From: Alphaproteobacteria bacterium
Lineage (GTDB): Bacteria; Pseudomonadota; Alphaproteobacteria; RF32; CAG-239
Reading direction: 5' to 3'
Length of the DNA: 56,155 bases
Assembly (NCBI GenBank): GCA_017475935.1
Contig: JAFVEP010000024.1
Span: forward strand, 1 to 56,155
In this document: positions 29,872 to 39,832 of the stretch, one piece after another
How the letters are laid out: each line of letters starts with the position of its first letter
How positions within the stretch are numbered: position 1 is the first letter of the stretch
Notes under the pieces: model-generated
What the model was told of the DNA's origin: nothing
Databases searched by the model: none
What the model saw: the letters and a program-made list of their open reading frames with translations, nothing else
Made by a program: the position numbers and the translations under genes

Positions 29872-30372
29872 ATGAAAAATATGGTATCCGGCTGTTCCGC
29901 CAGAAATCACGGCTCCGAGCTCGGTTCACCGAACCGCTCAAGCGAAATAAATAATCTGATGAATTATTTTTGGAATTACATGGACATGCCGTCAACTTTG
30001 GCCGAAACGCCTACGGAAATAGAACCGAAAATGCAGATTGCCGAAACAGATGACGCAGTCAGCGTTACGGCGGAACTTCCGGGAATTGCGGACAAAGATC
30101 TCGACTTGCAGATCTCTTCCGACGGCTATTTATCGATTTGCGGCGAAAAAAGAAATGTTGTCGAACAAACCGATAAAAATGCTTATTTTTCCGAAATTTC
30201 ATACGGAACATTTAAAAGGACAATTCCTTTGCCGTGGGATTTGGATTATGAAAAAGCAAAAGCGGATTTTCAAAACGGTGTTCTTAAGGTTTTTATTCCT
30301 AAATCACCGATTGAAAAACAAAAATTCCGCAAAATTGCCATTAATTCCTCACCATCAGAAAAAAACAACTGA
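29872..30372 (+). CDS. Hsp20/alpha-crystallin family small heat-shock protein
   Basis: Alpha-crystallin domain: VSVTAELPGIADKDLDLQI...GTFKRTIPLP...ADFQNGVLKVFIPK. Confidence 0.85.
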   Translation: MKNMVSGCSARNHGSELGSPNRSSEINNLMNYFWNYMDMPSTLAETPTEIEPKMQIAETDDAVSVTAELPGIADKDLDLQISSDGYLSICGEKRNVVEQTDKNAYFSEISYGTFKRTIPLPWDLDYEKAKADFQNGVLKVFIPKSPIEKQKFRKIAINSSPSEKNN

Positions 30373-30377
30373 TCTCA

Positions 30378-30410
30378 ACCCTGTTTCCTAAGGAAGCAGG
30401 GTCTTTTTTT
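30378..30410 (+). terminator. rho-independent terminator
   Basis: Stem ACCCTGTTTCC/GGAAGCAGGGT (one G-U pair) with loop taa, then CTTTTTTT. Confidence 0.8.
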
Positions 30411-30484
30411 ATCCGACTTTTAACCAAAACTTAAAGTTTCACAGTTACAATCATGCCGAGAGGATGTATAAGAAAGGTCGTATT

Positions 30485-33400
30485 ATGTCTGAAAATACGC
30501 TATTTACCAAGGTTGTGTGCGTGGCAACGGCATGTTGTTTTGCACAGTCGGTTATGCCTAAAATTGCTTACGGACGCGGATTGGATCCTGTTTCTTTCAG
30601 CAGAATGTATGCCGTCGCGCAAAGCGGCGACGTTGAGGGTTTACGCGCCTCAGTCTATCGCGGCATGAACATCGATGCGGTCAATGCCCGCGGCGATACC
30701 GGACTTTGTGTTGCGGCCAGAAATCGCGATTCTTATACATACAATGCTTTTCGGGCGGCCGGCGCAAATCCGCGTCACCCGTGCGTACAGAATATTAAAG
30801 GTTATGAAGATTTCGTCGAATCATCAAACGCTGTTCCGGTAACGGCCACACCGCGTGATGCGTACGGCACTCTCGGCAAGGAAGAATATAAAATTTCTTC
30901 TTGGGTATGGTGGGGACTCGGCGGATTAATCGTCACCGGCATTGCTTTGGGGCTGGCCTTTTCCTGCGGCGGTGGCGGCGGTGGCGGCGGCGATTCAGGC
31001 GGCAGTGGTAGCGGCGAAAGCTACAACAGCTTAGGCGCATACGCCGGTAAAAGCGGAAAAGTCCGCAAATCAACATCCGGCACAGCCACCAACACTTCAT
31101 CCATCACATGGGAAAACTCCAAAACAGACAAGATAACTGCCATTAATTTAAACAACAATGTTTTGAGTAACACGCAGTATTTAGATGTCATTTTGAATGC
31201 CAAAAAAGGCGGCAAATATACGAATGAGCAGAACAAAATTTTAAAAGCCGGCGCCGGAACGGTTGCCATGAACGCGGTTAAAAACAGTCAGACATCTAAC
31301 GAAGGCTACATTAATATTGACTCATACAATGCGTCCATCGGCATGATCGCCAGCGAATTATCAACCGCTGTAAATAACGGCCGCGGCATCATTGACGGCA
31401 GCGATACAAACGGTATTGATATCAATTTTTCCGGTTATAAAAAAGACAATGTTGTTATCGGCATGTATGCGGATACAAGTTCAACACTGACCAACAACGG
31501 TGACATCAAAGGATCAGCCGTTAAAGCAACAGCTGACCCGTCATCTCAGCAAAACACCAACAATGAAACAGGGTTGGTTTCTAACTTAACCGACGGAACT
31601 TCATCGTCAGCATCAACCTCCAGCAAGGGTACTCTTGTCGGCATGGAAGCCATGCTGATCAATGTCGGCACCGATTTAAGCAACAAATATGTCACTCTGA
31701 TCAATAACACCGGCGGCAAAATCAATTTAAGCGCCGGTGACGGCGGCACGGAAACCGAGGTCACTGTTTCCATGATCGGCATGGGAAGCTGGCTGGATTA
31801 TAATTTTATGAACAGCTCACAAAACATCAATCGGGCCGAAAACGTACAGATTATTAACAAAGGTGACATTTCTTTAAGTTACACCGGTTCTTACAGCACC
31901 CCATCGACAACGGATTTACGTAAGGGCTTAGGCGGCGTTGTCGGCATGCGCGGAGATGCGCGCACAAGTGTATTAAACTATGCAGATGCCCGCATCAGCA
32001 TCACACTTGATGATTACACGGCAAAATCCGACAACAATTCATCAAGTTCGCAAGCACAAAGCGGCACCGAAGTTGCGGCCGGCATGCAATCCGTTCATGG
32101 CGCCAATTTAACCAACAACGGCACGATTTCCATCATCACGCCTTCGTCAAACAACCGCATCAGTTACGGACTTCTTTCTGTTGAAGGATCGGGAACCGTT
32201 TCAGGACTTTACACCAATTTGAATCAAAAGCTGATCAATAACGGCAACATTCAAATGGAGGTCAGCAACAGCTACGGCATGGCTTCGTACAACGGCGGCA
32301 CACTAAGCAACATTGGAACAATCACCATGGGCCGCGCCGGCACAACAACCTTATACGGTAAAAACGTAGCCATGTACGGTTCCGGTTCAAGTCAGGAAAC
32401 GACCATGGAAAACACCGGCACCATTAATTTACATTCATATAAATCAACGGCCATGCAGAACGATTATCCGGGCGGCACCGTCATGTATAACAAAGGCATC
32501 ATCAACATTGAGCGCAGTGCGACAGACTCGTATGTTTTCGGCGGCGCATACAGTGAAGCGCACAACAGCAAGACCATCAACTATTATGCGACAGCCTCAA
32601 ATGAAGGATCATCCGGTTCAGAAAGCTCTGCCATTGGTACGGATGATGCACCTTTTGCCAACATCAAAACGCCTGTCGGTATTTCGGCTGTCAGCACAAA
32701 AGCGCAAACCGCCGACGGCAAAGAGAATTCCGACGGTTCTAAAACCGAGAAAATATATAACGATCAGGGCGCATCAATTTTACTCAGCGGCGCGGCATAT
32801 GTTTCTGCCCTGTCGGTTGAAACCGCACAAGGCCGTGCCGAAAACAACGGCACTATCACCATTCAGGACAGCGATGTTAAAAACGCCGTCGATTCGGTCG
32901 GTATGTACATGGACGCCAGCACAATTTCGAGCGCTCGTATCACCAATGGTGCGAACGGAGTGATCAAAACCAACTCTAGATTTTCCAAGGCAATGATGAG
33001 CCTTTCACCGGCAATTTCAGCCATGGTCAACAACGGAAAGATCGAAGCCAATGCCGAATATTCGTTCGGTATGTTTGCCGATGGCAAAAGTTTAGTCAAC
33101 AACACCTCCACCGGTCAAATCCAGCTTAACAACAATAACAGTGCTGCCATTTATGTCAAAGGGGCGTCAACAATCAACAACGACGGAACTTTAAATGTCG
33201 GACAGCGTGCGCAAGGCTTAATGAACAGCTACGGTATTTATTTGGATGGTGATGCCGCCGAAGCAACCAACAGCGGTATCATCAATGTTTATGCCGACAA
33301 AAAACGAAACACGAATGTTACGGCGGCAATTCTCTTAAACAAGAATGCGACGGTTAAAAACAAAAATATGATCCATGTCAATTCCGGCGGCGCTTATGGT

Positions 33401-36400
33401 ATTTATGCAAAAGCGGGCGAAGGCAGTTCCATCATCAACGAAACAGAAGGAAGTATCGTTGTCGGAACCAGAACCACCTCTGTCAGTGACAGTTACGCTA
33501 TTTATGCCGCAGAAGGCGCAAATGCCTCCATTACCAACAACGGAACAATCACTTTGAATAACAATGGCAAGGCCTATGCTATTTATGCTTTAGGTGAATC
33601 TTCCGTAATTAACAACGGCATCATCAATCTCGAAAATGACAACGGAACGGCTATTTCCGTTGCCAACGGCACAGCCAGCAATAAGAACACCTTAAACCTC
33701 TTGCACAATAACAATGTCGGGCTGGAATTAAACGGAGAAGGTGAAATTATTAACGAAGAAGGATCTGTCATTAATGTCGGCAACGCTTCAAGCTTCAATG
33801 TTTCAAACATCAGTCAAGGCAATGCGGCGATGAGTAACACGGCCGAAGCCAAAGGAACCATCACCAACAAGGGTGAAATTGTCATCGACAACAAGAACAG
33901 CAGCAGCGACAACACCGGAATCAGAGTTATTGAATCGGCTGACAGCGACTCCGAAGGCGGCGAATCTTCATCAGTGACCGTCAACAACAACGGCGTTCTG
34001 CGCGCACTGACCGGCTACACAACAGCCATTACAGCCGGAAAAAACACAACAGTCAACAATGACGGAACCATCACCATTCTGGCGAACAGTTACGGCATCA
34101 AAAGTATTGGTGAAACAGGCAGCTTTACGTTTACGAACCACAACAACGGCATCATTAATGTCAACGGCAACAATAGCAAGGGTGTTTATGCCGAAAACGG
34201 CACAATTAACAATTACGGCAAAATTTTAGTCGGCAATTACACAGGCAGCAATGGCATTGAAACTTACGGCAAAGTTTCCGGCATCAACAACTACGGCACA
34301 ATAAAAGTTACCGGCAACAGCTCCAACGGTATTTATGTTTATCCGGTCGGCGGCCAGACTTTAACCATAGCCAACGGCGCCGGAGCAGTCTTAGAGGGTG
34401 GTTTTGCTTCCGTCAATGCCAAAAATGTCGGCGCCGTCACCATCACCAACGACGGTAAAATCCGCAATGCACAATACGGCATTTACGCCACTGAAGGTGC
34501 TTCTGAATTAACCATTACCAACAACGATGAGCTGAGCGGCACCATCGCCGCCATTTATGCGGAAACAAACACAAGCGTCGACATCAAGAATATTGGTACA
34601 ATTACCAATGGTATTTATCTTGTTCCGAAGCGTGACGGTGTTAAAATCAGTATAACAAACACCGGCACCATCACCGGCAGCGCTTTAACGAAAAATTACG
34701 GCATTTATATCAATAACAGCGGTTTTACGCCAAGTGAAGAAAGCGGCTATTATTTTGAAGATAAAGATCTCGGCGGTGCGACATGTACCACGGCGCAAGG
34801 CGTACAATGGTGTTATAAGAAAAAAGAAGGCGGAGACGGAGAACAAGGCGGAGGCGGAGAACAAGGCGGAGGCGGAGAACAAGGCGGAGGCGGAGAACAA
34901 GGCGGAGGCGGAGAACAAGATCCTTATACCAACAGCAAAACTGTCAATGTTCCGGAAAATAAAATAGGATTTTCTTTTACCAATGGCAACGATTTCACAT
35001 TTACCAACAGTAAAGACACCGGTGTGATAAACATTATCGGCGCCAATGCCAAGGGGGTTTATGCCACCAGCGGCACAATCAACAACAAAGGAAAAATCAC
35101 CATCGGCAATTATGCTGACAGCTATGGCATTTACGCCGAGGGCAATGTCAAAGCCATCAACAACACAGGCAGCATCACGGTCAACAATGCGGCTTCCAGT
35201 GCAATTTACGCCGCACCGATCGGCGGTTCATCCATTGCTATCACTAATGGCGTCGGCGGCATTTTGAGCGGCGGTTTTGCCTCCATCAATGCCAACAATG
35301 TCGGTGCCGTTAACATCACCAACAGCGGTACAATTTCCGGCGCCAAATACGGCATTTATTCAACGCAAGGTGCTTCGCCTTTAACCATTATCAATAATAA
35401 TGCTTTGGGCGGCACGATTGCCGGCATTTATGCCGAATCGAACTCTAACATTAATATTACCAATTTAAGTACCATCACCAACGGCATTTTCCTTGTTCCA
35501 AAGACCGAAAATGTCGGGATTACGATTAATAATAGCGGCACAATCACCAACAACACCGGCAAGGTTGAAATCAATGGTCAGCTGATACTTGATAGCCAAA
35601 ACTACGGCATTTACATCTATCAGTCGGACTTCAACCGCGCATATACATTTGATAACCTCGGCGGAGCGACTTGGGGCACCAACCGCTTTGAGCCGGATGA
35701 TCCGTCAATTGTGGCCGATCTCAGCAACAACGAAAAGGTTATCGTTGCTAAAAAGGCATCTGAAAATCCTAAACATTTAGCATCTCCTGGATTCCAGATT
35801 CTCGAAAACAGGATATTTATTAATGATAGCAATGGCCATATTGCTTTCGCCCCAAATTCGGATAGCGATAGGCTATATGGAATAAATGCTTTAATGGGAA
35901 CAATTATTAACAGAGGAGTAATTGATGCTCAGTGTCCAATCGGTAATTGTTGGGCTATATCTGGTGGACGGCACATAAGCTCTATTAAAAACTATGGCAC
36001 AATTAAGGGAGAGATTGTACTACGTGATCTTGAATCAGATGCCACTTTAGTGAATGGGAAAAACGGCAATATAGTAAGTGACACATTCGCAATTAATGCA
36101 AAAAACGGTTCAAAATTAACCATTCTTAATGACGGAATAATAAGCAAAACGGAACATGCTACCAGTGAATCTTCTGTCTCATATTATGCTATCGATACAT
36201 ATGGCATTTCACAAGTAACAATTAAAAATAATTCTAAAATCACCTCATCAAGTGCCACAACTATCCATGCACGAGAGGTTAATGACATTGAGATTTATAA
36301 CACCGGTACTATTGAAAGCCCCGATACAGATTTTGTTGAGGCCATATATATTGAAGCAAACAATAGTATCAAGATTACCAATACTGGAAGCATCATCGGT

Positions 36401-39400
36401 GGTATTTACCTTGTTCCGAAGAACACAAGCACAACGATTGATTTATATAACTCAGGTACTATGTCCGGTGGACCTAGAAGGCATGAGGCTAACATTTACA
36501 TTGCTCCGGATGGCTTTACGAAAGAATACACCTTCACCAACTTAGGCTCGGCCACATGCGGCCCATCGGGAACATGCATCGTCCAAGCCCCTGAACCGGA
36601 AGAAACCGATACCGGTACAGGTACGGGCACAGGCACAGGTACGGGTACAGGAACTGGTACGGGTACAGGTACAAGCGGCGACAATACCGGCTCATTTGAT
36701 CCGTATGATTCTAGTATCGTCGCAAGTGAAACGAATAATGAGGATATAAGAGTAGATAGCATACAAGATGACGGCACAGCATTCTCAACAAATGCAATAG
36801 TCAATGGGATTGAAATTACGGGCAAAAGTAATTCTTTTGTTTTCGAAAATAAAGGTAAGATTACTGTGCAGAGAAGTTCTAGCCACGGCATAATTGCCGA
36901 CAGCGGCACAATCATTAACCTTGGTACGATTCAATTGGATGGTAGCTATGCAGATCAATTCGATCCGAATTATGAGAGTGGAAAGGCCAATTACCGAAAA
37001 GATCTCAAAGGTATCTTAGGTCGCGAAGATGTAAAAGCGATTAAAAATTACGGAACAATTAATATTGAGGGTAATCCGCAAGGGCATAATTATGGAATCA
37101 CAGCCTCTCAACTGAACTCTCCTTTCGTCATAACCAACGGTGTCGGCGGTAGCATTGCAGGTCCTGCCCAAAGCTCTATTTATGTAACTGATACGGGTTA
37201 CCCCGTAACAGTTAATAATGACGGCACAATCAGTGGCGCCAAAGAATATGGTATTTATGTTGCAACAACTTCAGATATAAATATTAACAACAGCGGTACA
37301 TTAGAGGGAACTGTTGCTGCAATTTATGCCGCAACAAATAAGAATATAAGCCTCACCAATACCGGAACGATAACAAATGGTGTTTATCTTTATATGGGCA
37401 GTGAAGATGCCACTATTCAAATTCACAACACCGGTACGATCACAGGTAGCGCCAAAACACATAATGTTGGAATTTATATCGACCATGCATATGAAAAAGA
37501 TTATGGCATTACATCTGCAGACTTGGGAGGTGCTTCTTGTTTAACTTCCAATGGTAAATGCATCTCTGATACAGGTACTGAACAAGGCGGAGGCACCGAC
37601 ACAACCCTTGAGCCAAGTACTGGCCCATTCGTCGCTCCGGATGATCCGTCGATTGTGGCCGATCAAAGCAATTCAGCAACAGTGTCACTTAACTACGCCA
37701 AAGATAAGGGATTTACCATTCAAAATCAAGATAACAGCTATGTATTCATTAATGAAGAAACCGGTATAATCAACGTTAATAAAAACGAATCAGCTATTGC
37801 TGCAGATAGCGGTACAATCATTAACCGCGGACAAATTAACGTAGCTGCTGGTGTTGGTATAGGTATTGATGTCAGTAAAAATATTCGAGCTATTAAAAAT
37901 TATGGCACAATTCAAGCCAGAGAAGGCACTGCTATTTCAGCAGGGAATTTGACCTCAGATCTGACTGTTTCCAACGGTTTCAATGGAGTCATAGAAGGTG
38001 AAGAAAAACCAGTTTATATAAACAATACATCGAATGCTGTTTCTTTGACGGTTCTCAATGATGGTCAAATTCGCAGTAAGGGATATGCCATTTATGCCAT
38101 CAACGATAACGGCTTAATCACAATTAAGAACCATGGAACAATTATCGGTGACAGCGACAACACAGGAAACTATACAGCTGTCTATGCACGATCCGCTGTA
38201 GGCTTTAACATTACCAATAGCGGAACCATTACTAATGGTATTTATCTCTTTCCTAAAAGCGAAAATGCCACGATTAACATCAAAAATACCGGAACCATCA
38301 CCGGCAATGCAAAAACACAAAATTTTGGAATTTACATAATGAATTCGTCTATAGTCCCAGAACTCAGACCATATTACAACCTCACAAGCGCGGACTTAGG
38401 TTCAGCGACATGTTCGACCGCACAAGGTTCCGAATATTGCGGTTCCGCCCCTGTGGGAAACAACAATGTCGGCACTTCATCCTTTACGAAGAAAATGTAT
38501 ACGCTGAAAATTTTGAACACGGGAACCATCGCCAACAGCGGTGAAATGAACTTCGGCGATGATCAAGATCCGAATATTTCCGTCGGCGCCGGCGGTCAAT
38601 ATCAGGCCGATTCGTTTACCGGAACGGTAGGCGCTGATTCCAGCATTGTCGAAAGCGGATTCGATACCACCTATGTCAATGAAAATTCATTCGTCGGTAC
38701 CGATAAAGGCATTGTCGTCAAATCAAAATCCTACATGTTCAACGCCGACAAACAGGCGAACGCAAACGGCAATACCGACGTTGTCATGACCATGAAATCC
38801 ATAGACAGTGTCGTTGATGATCAGAAAATTGCCGGCTATTTGACACAAAACTATGAAAACCAAAAAGGCGAAGTCCTGTTTGCCTCTTTAAAATCGGCCG
38901 CCACAAAGAAAGCTTTCGCACAAAACTTGAACCGCGATCTCGGCTTCAACATGATACCGAACTTAATCAAGCAAAATACGGACACCGAAAAGGTCATTCA
39001 TCGCGAAATCACCGACGCACTTTTTGCCTCCGATCGTGATGGTGCGCATATCAAAATGCTGACCTATCAACGTCGCGCCGGAACAAAAAGCGGAGCTTTG
39101 GGATACAAAGACAAAGTCAGCGGCGCTTTCGGATTTTATCAGCACACCTTATCGAATGGCATCCGCACAGCGCTCGGATTCGACATTTATCGTGCCGTCA
39201 GCAGTTATAACGATGACTCTTCACGTTATCACAACGCTGCCGAAATCTTTGCTCCGATCATGCTCGGATCGCGTGAAAATGCGCTGATGTTCAAGCCGAA
39301 AGCCGGATTTACCCGCGGACATTATCGCCGCAGAAGTGCTTATGACGCCCATAAAGCGCGCACAAAGGAATACTATTACGGTGCCGATACGCAGTTCGAA

Positions 39401-39832
39401 CATACAACAGACTTCGGTATTGCCGAAATCGTTCCAATGGCCGGATTCGATGTGTTGAACATTCATGCCGGTAAAATTTCCGAAAGCAACAACGGCTTAA
39501 AGATCAAGAGTAAAGATCTGACCTCAGCACAATCCATGCTCGGTCTGAGCTTGCGGAAAAAATTCATCACCGATAATTCCGAAACATTGGCCCTCGAAAT
39601 CGGCGGCAAGTACTACCGCGAATTCGGCGATAAAGATCGCTCAAAGGTCAGTGTTGCCGACGCTCAAGGCTACTACACCATTCGCGGCCGTCAAACACAG
39701 CGCGACTTCGGTTTACTGACCGCCAAGGGAGAATATACATACGGAAACATTGAAGCTACGGCTGAGCTGGGCGTTCCTTTGGAACAAAAAGCCAAACCTT
39801 TCGGTTTGTTCAGTATCGGTTATCGTTTTTAG
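30485..39832 (+). CDS. giant autotransporter-type surface protein (about 3115 aa): ankyrin N-terminus, hydrophobic lipobox-like segment, poly-Gly linker, repetitive passenger, C-terminal beta-barrel
   Basis: The single ORF opens at 30464. The ATG at 30485 has a better-spaced AGAAAGG. The passenger is dominated by N-x-G-x-I / YGIYA beta-strand repeats. The C-terminal region of about 300 aa is rich in alternating aromatic residues and ends ...FGLFSIGYRF, an OMP signature. Confidence 0.85.
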   Translation: MSENTLFTKVVCVATACCFAQSVMPKIAYGRGLDPVSFSRMYAVAQSGDVEGLRASVYRGMNIDAVNARGDTGLCVAARNRDSYTYNAFRAAGANPRHPCVQNIKGYEDFVESSNAVPVTATPRDAYGTLGKEEYKISSWVWWGLGGLIVTGIALGLAFSCGGGGGGGGDSGGSGSGESYNSLGAYAGKSGKVRKSTSGTATNTSSITWENSKTDKITAINLNNNVLSNTQYLDVILNAKKGGKYTNEQNKILKAGAGTVAMNAVKNSQTSNEGYINIDSYNASIGMIASELSTAVNNGRGIIDGSDTNGIDINFSGYKKDNVVIGMYADTSSTLTNNGDIKGSAVKATADPSSQQNTNNETGLVSNLTDGTSSSASTSSKGTLVGMEAMLINVGTDLSNKYVTLINNTGGKINLSAGDGGTETEVTVSMIGMGSWLDYNFMNSSQNINRAENVQIINKGDISLSYTGSYSTPSTTDLRKGLGGVVGMRGDARTSVLNYADARISITLDDYTAKSDNNSSSSQAQSGTEVAAGMQSVHGANLTNNGTISIITPSSNNRISYGLLSVEGSGTVSGLYTNLNQKLINNGNIQMEVSNSYGMASYNGGTLSNIGTITMGRAGTTTLYGKNVAMYGSGSSQETTMENTGTINLHSYKSTAMQNDYPGGTVMYNKGIINIERSATDSYVFGGAYSEAHNSKTINYYATASNEGSSGSESSAIGTDDAPFANIKTPVGISAVSTKAQTADGKENSDGSKTEKIYNDQGASILLSGAAYVSALSVETAQGRAENNGTITIQDSDVKNAVDSVGMYMDASTISSARITNGANGVIKTNSRFSKAMMSLSPAISAMVNNGKIEANAEYSFGMFADGKSLVNNTSTGQIQLNNNNSAAIYVKGASTINNDGTLNVGQRAQGLMNSYGIYLDGDAAEATNSGIINVYADKKRNTNVTAAILLNKNATVKNKNMIHVNSGGAYGIYAKAGEGSSIINETEGSIVVGTRTTSVSDSYAIYAAEGANASITNNGTITLNNNGKAYAIYALGESSVINNGIINLENDNGTAISVANGTASNKNTLNLLHNNNVGLELNGEGEIINEEGSVINVGNASSFNVSNISQGNAAMSNTAEAKGTITNKGEIVIDNKNSSSDNTGIRVIESADSDSEGGESSSVTVNNNGVLRALTGYTTAITAGKNTTVNNDGTITILANSYGIKSIGETGSFTFTNHNNGIINVNGNNSKGVYAENGTINNYGKILVGNYTGSNGIETYGKVSGINNYGTIKVTGNSSNGIYVYPVGGQTLTIANGAGAVLEGGFASVNAKNVGAVTITNDGKIRNAQYGIYATEGASELTITNNDELSGTIAAIYAETNTSVDIKNIGTITNGIYLVPKRDGVKISITNTGTITGSALTKNYGIYINNSGFTPSEESGYYFEDKDLGGATCTTAQGVQWCYKKKEGGDGEQGGGGEQGGGGEQGGGGEQGGGGEQDPYTNSKTVNVPENKIGFSFTNGNDFTFTNSKDTGVINIIGANAKGVYATSGTINNKGKITIGNYADSYGIYAEGNVKAINNTGSITVNNAASSAIYAAPIGGSSIAITNGVGGILSGGFASINANNVGAVNITNSGTISGAKYGIYSTQGASPLTIINNNALGGTIAGIYAESNSNINITNLSTITNGIFLVPKTENVGITINNSGTITNNTGKVEINGQLILDSQNYGIYIYQSDFNRAYTFDNLGGATWGTNRFEPDDPSIVADLSNNEKVIVAKKASENPKHLASPGFQILENRIFINDSNGHIAFAPNSDSDRLYGINALMGTIINRGVIDAQCPIGNCWAISGGRHISSIKNYGTIKGEIVLRDLESDATLVNGKNGNIVSDTFAINAKNGSKLTILNDGIISKTEHATSESSVSYYAIDTYGISQVTIKNNSKITSSSATTIHAREVNDIEIYNTGTIESPDTDFVEAIYIEANNSIKITNTGSIIGGIYLVPKNTSTTIDLYNSGTMSGGPRRHEANIYIAPDGFTKEYTFTNLGSATCGPSGTCIVQAPEPEETDTGTGTGTGTGTGTGTGTGTGTSGDNTGSFDPYDSSIVASETNNEDIRVDSIQDDGTAFSTNAIVNGIEITGKSNSFVFENKGKITVQRSSSHGIIADSGTIINLGTIQLDGSYADQFDPNYESGKANYRKDLKGILGREDVKAIKNYGTINIEGNPQGHNYGITASQLNSPFVITNGVGGSIAGPAQSSIYVTDTGYPVTVNNDGTISGAKEYGIYVATTSDININNSGTLEGTVAAIYAATNKNISLTNTGTITNGVYLYMGSEDATIQIHNTGTITGSAKTHNVGIYIDHAYEKDYGITSADLGGASCLTSNGKCISDTGTEQGGGTDTTLEPSTGPFVAPDDPSIVADQSNSATVSLNYAKDKGFTIQNQDNSYVFINEETGIINVNKNESAIAADSGTIINRGQINVAAGVGIGIDVSKNIRAIKNYGTIQAREGTAISAGNLTSDLTVSNGFNGVIEGEEKPVYINNTSNAVSLTVLNDGQIRSKGYAIYAINDNGLITIKNHGTIIGDSDNTGNYTAVYARSAVGFNITNSGTITNGIYLFPKSENATINIKNTGTITGNAKTQNFGIYIMNSSIVPELRPYYNLTSADLGSATCSTAQGSEYCGSAPVGNNNVGTSSFTKKMYTLKILNTGTIANSGEMNFGDDQDPNISVGAGGQYQADSFTGTVGADSSIVESGFDTTYVNENSFVGTDKGIVVKSKSYMFNADKQANANGNTDVVMTMKSIDSVVDDQKIAGYLTQNYENQKGEVLFASLKSAATKKAFAQNLNRDLGFNMIPNLIKQNTDTEKVIHREITDALFASDRDGAHIKMLTYQRRAGTKSGALGYKDKVSGAFGFYQHTLSNGIRTALGFDIYRAVSSYNDDSSRYHNAAEIFAPIMLGSRENALMFKPKAGFTRGHYRRRSAYDAHKARTKEYYYGADTQFEHTTDFGIAEIVPMAGFDVLNIHAGKISESNNGLKIKSKDLTSAQSMLGLSLRKKFITDNSETLALEIGGKYYREFGDKDRSKVSVADAQGYYTIRGRQTQRDFGLLTAKGEYTYGNIEATAELGVPLEQKAKPFGLFSIGYRF
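34829..34918 (+). repeat. perfect 18-nt tandem repeat, 4.5 copies, encoding (GEQGGG)n
   Basis: ggagaacaaggcggaggc begins at 34838, 34856, 34874 and 34892, with a half copy at 34910. Confidence 0.95.
36611..36673 (+). repeat. imperfect 6-nt repeat encoding (TG)10 T
   Basis: The run accggtacaggtacgggcacaggcacaggtacgggtacagga... uses mixed codons, so it is not a pure microsatellite. Confidence 0.9.

Follow-up and report, generated by a model that had tools for sequence, protein, structure and literature searches.

A conserved module of an ankyrin-like unit, a hydrophobic helix and a poly-glycine hinge follows the signal peptide in a family of type Va autotransporters of gut and rumen Alphaproteobacteria

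How is an autotransporter exported, and where does its N-terminus come to rest, when a second hydrophobic segment stands between its signal peptide and its passenger? This question is raised by a gene located at 30485..39832 on the plus strand of the DNA stretch analysed here (the window; 56,155 nucleotides, contig JAFVEP010000024.1 of assembly GCA_017475935.1), which comes from a 1.37-Mb, 96%-complete metagenome-assembled genome (MAG) of an uncultured gut alphaproteobacterium. The gene consists of 3115 codons plus stop, numbered from a conserved ATG. In the usual textbook scheme of type V secretion, a protein is composed of a signal peptide, a passenger and a barrel. In this protein about 160 residues stand ahead of the repetitive passenger, and a first-pass annotation of the region 30485-31030 (residues 1-182, if numbered from Met at 30485, as throughout this text) had described there a non-standard N-terminus composed of an ankyrin-like stretch, a hydrophobic segment and poly-Gly. 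All three are present in the sequence, and their order is conserved. As described below, the protein belongs to the classical autotransporters (type Va) and is a surface protein of the outer membrane. Its N-terminal module defines a large family of autotransporters, found in gut and rumen Alphaproteobacteria, the passengers of which differ greatly. The hydrophobic helix of this module is neither a lipoprotein signal, nor an internal start, nor the mark of a recent fusion.

The assignment of the protein to autotransporters, already made in the first-pass annotation, was confirmed by both the family match and the fold of its C-terminus. When the last 300 residues were scanned alone, and in a genome search, the autotransporter domain PF03797 was matched at 39074-39745 (E 4.5e-17), the score of 63.1-63.4 bits exceeding the cut-off of 26. 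The AlphaFold2 (AF2) model of the C-terminal domain, built with 26 orthologs, had a mean predicted local distance difference test score (pLDDT) of 92.3 and a predicted template modelling score (pTM) of 0.83, and was composed of a β-sandwich, a long helix and about 12 strands. The strands at 21-85 of this model coincide with a β-sandwich before the translocator (38600..38794, plus strand), which was matched by Pfam BigA_beta (PF25783) with 23.4-24.3 bits, that is, at the cut-off. The helix at 139-163 of the model is a long α-helical linker of the pore-helix type (38954..39028, plus strand; pLDDT of this block 89-95). It is followed by an approximately 12-stranded type Va autotransporter β-barrel, which is indicated by PF03797, AF2 and Foldseek, occupies the last 263 residues of the protein (39041..39829, plus strand), and ends with GYRF. 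As a profile of the C-terminal domain did not match any sequence of the PDB, a fold search was needed, and in it the best matches of the model given by Foldseek were AaaA (1.8e-13), EstA, NalP (template modelling score 0.82 on the target), EspP, Hbp, BrkA and AIDA-I. The C-terminal Phe was present in all 30 orthologs listed, and an Omp85/BamA gene (223 bits) was found in the genome on contig C78. Thus, the predicted 12-stranded barrel with a pore helix, the aromatic-ended β-signal and the BamA that are expected for type Va secretion are all found here, as is the N-terminal Sec signal peptide, which was recognized by eye and by alignment.

In contrast to the last 300 residues scanned alone, the whole 3122-residue protein and its 500-residue C-terminal piece (38330-39829) did not give the PF03797 match in hmmscan, and searches of the whole protein and of 400-500-residue pieces with Pfam and NCBIfam gave no autotransporter match. 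We take the PF03797 miss in the whole-protein and 500-residue scans to be a filter effect. In its 12-stranded barrel, pore helix, terminal Phe, Sec signal and long repetitive passenger the protein is like classical type Va autotransporters, such as AaaA and EstA of P. aeruginosa, NalP of N. meningitidis, EspP/Hbp of E. coli, BrkA and AIDA-I, and the β-sandwich before the barrel is a feature that it has in common with the BigA type (PF25783 BigA_beta; PF27415 and PF27417 on homologs). It differs from the other, described type Va autotransporters in what precedes the passenger. Instead of starting directly after the signal peptide, the passenger is separated from it by about 130 residues, which include the ankyrin unit, the hydrophobic segment and poly-Gly.

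Translation of the protein can be assigned to a definite start. Within the single plus-strand open reading frame (ORF), which spans 30464-39832, the ATG at 30464, in frame and 7 codons upstream of 30485, lacks conservation, and the only start codon common to all 19 orthologous loci is the ATG equivalent to 30485. In orthologs this ATG stands 37-39 codons ahead of an F..MY motif, and AAAGG or GAGG lies 6-9 nt ahead of it in the 19 loci. Here, the Shine-Dalgarno-like AAAGG is at 30473..30477 (plus strand), 7 nt ahead of the conserved start codon. The first 30 residues from this start (30485..30574, plus strand), which were overlooked in the first-pass annotation, have in the alignment of orthologs and paralogs all the marks of a canonical, textbook Sec-type signal peptide: an n-region with Lys, an h-region of about 13-15 hydrophobic residues, Pro25, and A-Y-G at -3/-1, where most relatives have A-x-A. 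The alignment of the 19 orthologs shows M1 and K9 without exception, and conservation of P25 and A30 reaches at least 90%. Paralogs of 26-34% identity retain the n/h/AxA pattern despite quite different sequences, with signal peptides ending, e.g., in VSQA, LANA, NANA, VSYA, NVNA or EARA. The retention of a cleavage-site pattern and a hydrophobic N-terminus across such a distance indicates that this region is selected as a signal peptide. As the peptide was judged by eye and from the alignment, its cleavage is what we infer from the sequence pattern. The N-terminal addition may resemble that of autotransporters with the extended signal peptide region (ESPR), which are also very large type V proteins. 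However, ESPR is a 20-25-residue extension of the signal peptide that is removed with it, whereas the signal peptide of our protein has about 30 residues and no extension from the conserved ATG, and the 130-residue module comes after it.

The module is specific to this lineage and makes up roughly the first 150 residues of the chain that would be left after cleavage. It begins, next to the signal peptide, with a unit of about 110 residues. The ankyrin-like character of its residues 37-100 (30593..30784, plus strand) is real but diverged, so that the repeat pair recognized in the first-pass annotation holds at the level of profile and fold, but not at that of Pfam thresholds: Ank_4 matched the unit with 14.6-14.8 bits, below its cut-off of 22.7, it matched 8 of the 19 orthologs with the best E of 5e-4, and no Pfam ankyrin model exceeded its gathering score on the unit. 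When the profile of orthologs was compared with PDB sequences, it matched ankyrin-1/2 with E 1e-9 and a designed 4-repeat ankyrin with E of about 1e-3. A wider profile retrieved about 100,000 of 1.84 billion proteins, with E down to 1e-165, and its best matches were multi-ankyrin proteins, each matched 20-38 times over at profile positions of about 35-97. The best 150 proteins of this search, 43 of which contain the full module, served as representatives in further comparisons. The AF2 model of the module contained two helix-turn-helix units, with helices at 38-46/50-58 and 73-79/83-91 and pLDDT of 70-80 over the ankyrin part, and the best 50 matches of the module in Foldseek were all ankyrin or designed ankyrin repeat protein (DARPin) structures, although with weak E values of 0.03-0.15. 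Profile-level similarity and the helix-turn-helix/β-hairpin fold of ankyrins are therefore both found. A small ankyrin domain that is preceded by a signal or anchor and placed outside the cytoplasm also occurs in periplasmic ankyrin proteins, such as AnkB of P. aeruginosa (PDB 9iq8). Its match to our profile was collinear (profile 17-86 against chain 19-86) but weak, with E 0.04, which is not significant alone, and AnkB, unlike the module, forms a protein by itself, about 160-180 residues long.

All 26 aligned orthologs and paralogs share two cysteines: Cys75 of GLC-AA, which occupies the position of His in TPLH, and Cys100 of NP-HPC. The ankyrin pair passes into a helical extension, residues 101-139 (30785..30901, plus strand), which is delimited by conservation and AF2 and ends with GKEEYK. 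Its residues Q102, Y107, F110, R124, A126, G131, E133 and Y135 are invariant in the alignment of 19 orthologs, and AF2 places helices at 99-102, 107-113 and 123-128. The genome contains two genes for DsbA-like proteins (Thioredoxin_4; contigs C52 and C7), and DsbB (PF02600) was not found in this 96%-complete genome. The presence of DsbA-like proteins without a detected DsbB bears on the Cys-bearing module, as well as on the Cys-rich paralogs described below.

The second hydrophobic segment (residues 140-161; 30902..30967, plus strand), delimited by alignment and a hydrophobicity scan, starts with WVWW and ends with AFSC. Its invariant WW is followed by a Gly/Ala-rich stretch of 19-25 residues with a conserved small-residue face (G146, G152 and A156). 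In the scan of all 3115 residues it was the only strongly hydrophobic 19-mer besides the signal peptide. The summed Hessa value of the helix is +0.7 kcal/mol in this protein, and for 16 scored members of the ortholog alignment the values ranged from +0.6 to +2.05. AF2 predicted a helix at 139-159 with low confidence, and the model of the module, with pLDDT of 56 overall, was too poor to place this helix or to measure the distance between the two cysteines. Directly behind the segment lies a hinge of eight glycines and further Gly, Ser and Asp residues (G8-DSGGSGSG; 30968..31015, plus strand), which was recognized in the alignment. G162-G165 are invariant or nearly so, and most relatives have runs of 5-10 Gly at this place. 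In a few members (P0086, P0103, P0067, P0050 and P0096) poly-Gly is replaced by His/Lys/Ser-rich linkers, such as GHHHGKSHKH, KHKHSDKK or SSGGKKKKK, which indicates that the hinge is conserved as a flexible polar linker and not as glycine per se. In the genome, the helix/poly-Gly element was found only in this gene, another Gly run being in a 562-residue ORF that was read as FtsZ. A match of the NCBIfam model invert_tail (NF058595) to the helix/poly-Gly region, with E 0.15-0.28 in 1 of 19 members, was rejected as a chance match.

In the first-pass annotation the end of this segment was considered to look like a lipoprotein signal. In support of that, the helix of this one species does end with AFSC and is followed by a Gly-rich tether. 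However, A-F-S-C at residues 158-161 departs from the lipobox [LVI][ASTVI][GAS]C and lies far from any start, whereas a lipobox would be expected at the end of an N-terminal signal peptide and with an invariant Cys. The Cys161 codon (30965..30967, plus strand) is species-specific: at its place 18 of 18 orthologs have Gly or Ser, and a Cys within 3 residues of poly-Gly was found in only 1 of the 43 representatives. The resemblance to a lipoprotein signal is a one-species coincidence. NalP and SphB1 are lipoprotein autotransporters, in which the N-terminus of the passenger is lipid-anchored and a flexible tether follows. Our protein is like them in that the N-terminus of its passenger may be held at a membrane, ahead of a tether, but it has no lipobox and no conserved Cys, and its hydrophobic element lies inside the chain, with a distinct signal peptide 140 residues ahead of it.

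A lipoprotein signal at this place would need an internal or non-canonical start. It had been remarked correctly that an in-frame ATG is missing directly ahead of the hydrophobic segment. Where some orthologs have Met, this protein has Leu (CTC) and other orthologs have Ile or Val, and orthologs share no start codon in the vicinity of the helix. Moreover, conservation within the protein is highest over the 140 residues that precede the helix, which indicates that they are translated. The idea of a non-canonical start thus finds nothing to rely on in the orthologs. The remaining variant of the same explanation is that the N-terminal 150 codons represent a separate gene, joined to the rest by a recent fusion or by an assembly error, and it is addressed by the distribution of the module.

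The module was found in 36 of 36 genomes of the genus, with 53-65% identity, always opening a frame of 1500-4450 codons. The C-terminal domain encoded by the same open frames is 37-46% identical, and hence the module is the best-conserved part of the protein. The repetitive passenger between them, of about 2500 residues here (31016..38539, plus strand), is highly variable in length among orthologs, as judged from open-frame lengths, the whole proteins having 1500-4450 residues. The relatives are MAGs of Alphaproteobacteria that live in the gut and rumen, and their hosts are cattle, yak, deer, sheep and humans. The order of signal peptide, ankyrin unit, helix and poly-Gly is kept even in paralogs of 26-34% identity that have other passengers, and several of them place Cys-rich units of the epidermal growth factor (EGF)-like type directly after poly-Gly. 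In all 43 representatives with the full module, apart from upstream-extended gene calls, the module starts at residue 1. The 35 that are complete end, without exception, in an autotransporter domain, and such a C-terminal domain was found in none of the approximately 108 other proteins among the top 150, which lack the full module and are mostly multi-ankyrin proteins. The gene upstream, hsp20, keeps this position in other species too, in at least 25 distinct orthologous loci, which supports their orthology. In public databases the homologs are named "hypothetical protein" and have marks of the BigA type and of PF03797 (PF27415 and PF27417, precomputed, PF25783 and PF03797), but no ankyrin mark.

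A fusion of two genes was another explanation offered by the first-pass annotation, and the distribution of the module does not fit with a recent one. No stand-alone gene of the module was found among the representatives of the profile search, and in orthologs the ankyrin part was found joined to the autotransporter, not separate from it. Eight short representatives contain the module only, but they run into passenger sequence and look like fragments from contig ends. The region upstream of the helix is conserved as a protein, at 53-65% identity, and the same architecture recurs in assemblies that were obtained independently, from the gut of cattle, deer, yak, sheep and humans. The lack of a stand-alone module and its linkage to the autotransporter domain in 35 of 35 cases indicate that any fusion must be ancient and family-defining. 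Altogether, we assign only a negligible probability to the explanation that the helix is an ordinary lipoprotein signal behind an internal start, or that the N-terminal part is a separate gene.

If the module is a genuine part of the protein, then the ankyrin unit could still stay in the cytoplasm behind a signal-anchor, as had also been proposed in the first-pass annotation. In this case the true export signal would be the helix, inserted into the inner membrane as a type II signal-anchor. The helix indeed scores above residues 1-30 in hydrophobicity. Moreover, in 26 close sequences the last charged residue ahead of the helix is K or R in 24, and the next 20 residues after it are acidic (+21/-54 in total), which is the polarity of a signal sequence. 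This polarity, however, vanishes in the wider family: in the 43 representatives the net charge over the first 20 residues behind the helix varies from -5 to +4, and the upstream flank is neutral overall. The positive-inside argument, clear in the close sequences and lost in the representatives, was dropped for either orientation of the helix. A type II signal-anchor would be expected to have a consistent positive-inside bias and no export signal upstream, whereas here the bias is inconsistent and every ortholog and paralog starts with a conserved signal peptide of the cleavable type. This signal peptide, kept in paralogs of 26% identity, would have to be idle. Additionally, the two invariant cysteines fit better to an oxidising compartment than to the cytoplasm, and full secretion of a 2900-residue passenger through the barrel would be impossible if the N-terminus was fixed in the inner membrane. 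We consider a cytoplasmic ankyrin unit improbable.

The explanation that we favour, with moderate confidence, is that the protein is a type Va autotransporter with an ordinary signal peptide, the module of which is exported whole and ends as the distal head of a fibre. The signal peptide would lead, the ankyrin unit would be exported through Sec, and the second hydrophobic segment would cross the inner membrane by the same route, together with the rest of the chain. The protein has only two hydrophobic segments and no third one to restart export, and thus either the second of them passes Sec or 2950 residues stay in the cytoplasm. As the latter would be senseless for an autotransporter, the second segment is expected to pass. 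Its passage is plausible because of its marginal hydrophobicity, with Hessa values of +0.6 to +2.05 kcal/mol, its richness in Gly and Ala, and the lack of a consistent charge asymmetry of its flanks. Such an asymmetry would be expected for a helix fixed in the inner membrane, and its inconsistency over the 43 representatives favours passage. The module would then exit the cell last, to become the N-terminal, distal head of the fibre, and the Gly-rich helix at the tip may act as a membrane-inserting or self-associating element beside an ankyrin binding unit. The passenger of VacA of Helicobacter pylori has a GxxxG-rich hydrophobic N-terminus, and viral fusion peptides are rich in Gly and Ala; both pass a Sec-type channel without stopping. 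By analogy, our segment could also be a moderately hydrophobic, Gly/Ala-rich element that is exported and acts in a membrane later, though here it follows an ankyrin unit and precedes poly-Gly, and a sequence relation is not expected.

The final location of the module, at the tip or at an anchor in the envelope, is the weakest step of this explanation. In favour of the tip, a long passenger sets the N-terminus far from the cell and the hinge is short. Moreover, paralogs stack Cys-rich EGF-like modules right after poly-Gly, as would be expected of a functional head. Several observations weigh on the other side. The top conservation of the module would be explained by contacts with the machinery of the cell itself no less well than by a host-exposed tip. 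The conserved small-residue face of the helix suggests helix-helix packing within a membrane, and some distant members have runs of Lys after the helix (GGKKKKK), which resemble the flank of a stop-transfer sequence. The crude scale ranks the helix level with accepted membrane helices of polytopic proteins in the window, and as the helix is marginal and overlaps with the range of real membrane helices, this scale cannot decide. The AF2 model of the module, as noted, is poor.

Less likely, yet deserving consideration, is that the module serves as an N-terminal anchor in the envelope. In such a case the ankyrin unit would fold in the periplasm, perhaps with a disulfide between C75 and C100, and could not pass the translocator, while the helix would span the outer membrane beside the barrel, or poly-Gly, which lacks side chains, would share the pore. 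The passenger would then be held at both ends. In agreement with this, the module surpasses all other parts of the protein in conservation and is common to paralogs with unrelated passengers, as if it was a device for handling or anchoring. It contains two invariant cysteines in a genome that encodes DsbA-like proteins. Its helix, which is 19-25 residues long, begins with WW and passes directly into a flexible tether, and this is the layout of a membrane anchor. Also, the region behind the helix is acidic in some members and Lys-rich in others, and no single orientation in the inner membrane fits with both. On the other hand, to our knowledge, no single-span α-helical outer-membrane anchor that would be delivered in this way is known. 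The predicted pore helix leaves little space for a second chain, and a long rod-like passenger sets the N-terminus far from the membrane, while only about 15-40 residues make up the hinge. DsbB was not detected, and the EGF-like modules with many cysteines in passengers of paralogs indicate that Cys content does not stop secretion here. Were such an anchor real, our protein would be like the inverse autotransporters of type Ve (intimin and invasin, with N-terminal periplasmic LysM) in having a small folded N-terminal domain in the periplasm. However, their order is signal, periplasmic domain, barrel and passenger, with the barrel N-terminal to the passenger, whereas the barrel of our protein is C-terminal, as in type Va.

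A more specific and unlikely possibility is that the helix acts as an outer-membrane stop-transfer. The ankyrin fold in the periplasm would stall the last step of secretion, the helix would leave the hybrid barrel of BamA and the autotransporter sideways into the lipid, and poly-Gly would be a hinge at the surface. If this was true, the autotransporter would be held at both ends, and the helix would be the first single-span α-helical outer-membrane anchor inserted via the route of type V secretion and the β-barrel assembly machinery (BAM).

The gene and its relatives are accompanied by further observations. The hsp20 gene (29872-30372) lies directly upstream of the autotransporter gene, and a terminator composed of a hairpin and a T-run is present at 30380-30410. 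A paralog of the module was not found within this genome. The other two PF03797 autotransporters of the genome have long leaders, after which the passenger follows directly, without the module. They are encoded on contig C62 (4966-9876; L117:667-2001) and on contig C52 (L118:470-1564, minus strand). Their leaders of 39-45 residues share, ahead of the hydrophobic core, the pre-segment M-x-L/K-S/Y-K/S-..-ALG-x-LN-x-QY-x-SVLK-x-C, which looks ESPR-like, though Pfam finds no family in the first 78 residues. Dense Cys-rich EGF-like modules, e.g. with C-x-x-x-C-x-x-G-C, are present in paralogs L103-L107, L109 and L114-L116 (genomes G004, G014, G012, G031, G021, G016, G002, G035 and G005). Type V secretion normally handles Cys-poor passengers, and EGF-like cargo is unusual for it.

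A search of the literature found no description of an autotransporter architecture with ankyrin unit, helix and poly-Gly, so that the module is apparently undescribed, although the class of autotransporters to which the protein belongs is known. A whole lineage of gut and rumen Alphaproteobacteria inserts a conserved 130-residue module, with a second hydrophobic segment that looks export-blocking, between the signal peptide and many different passengers. For annotation, this gives a signature to a family that databases now call hypothetical, and it shows that PF03797 can be missed in giant low-complexity proteins when they are scanned whole. If the module stays in the envelope, it would represent a new mode of autotransporter anchoring and a natural stalled intermediate for the study of BAM-assisted secretion. 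If it passes Sec and reaches the tip of the passenger, it would be a natural membrane-active head on an adhesin-like fibre of commensals.

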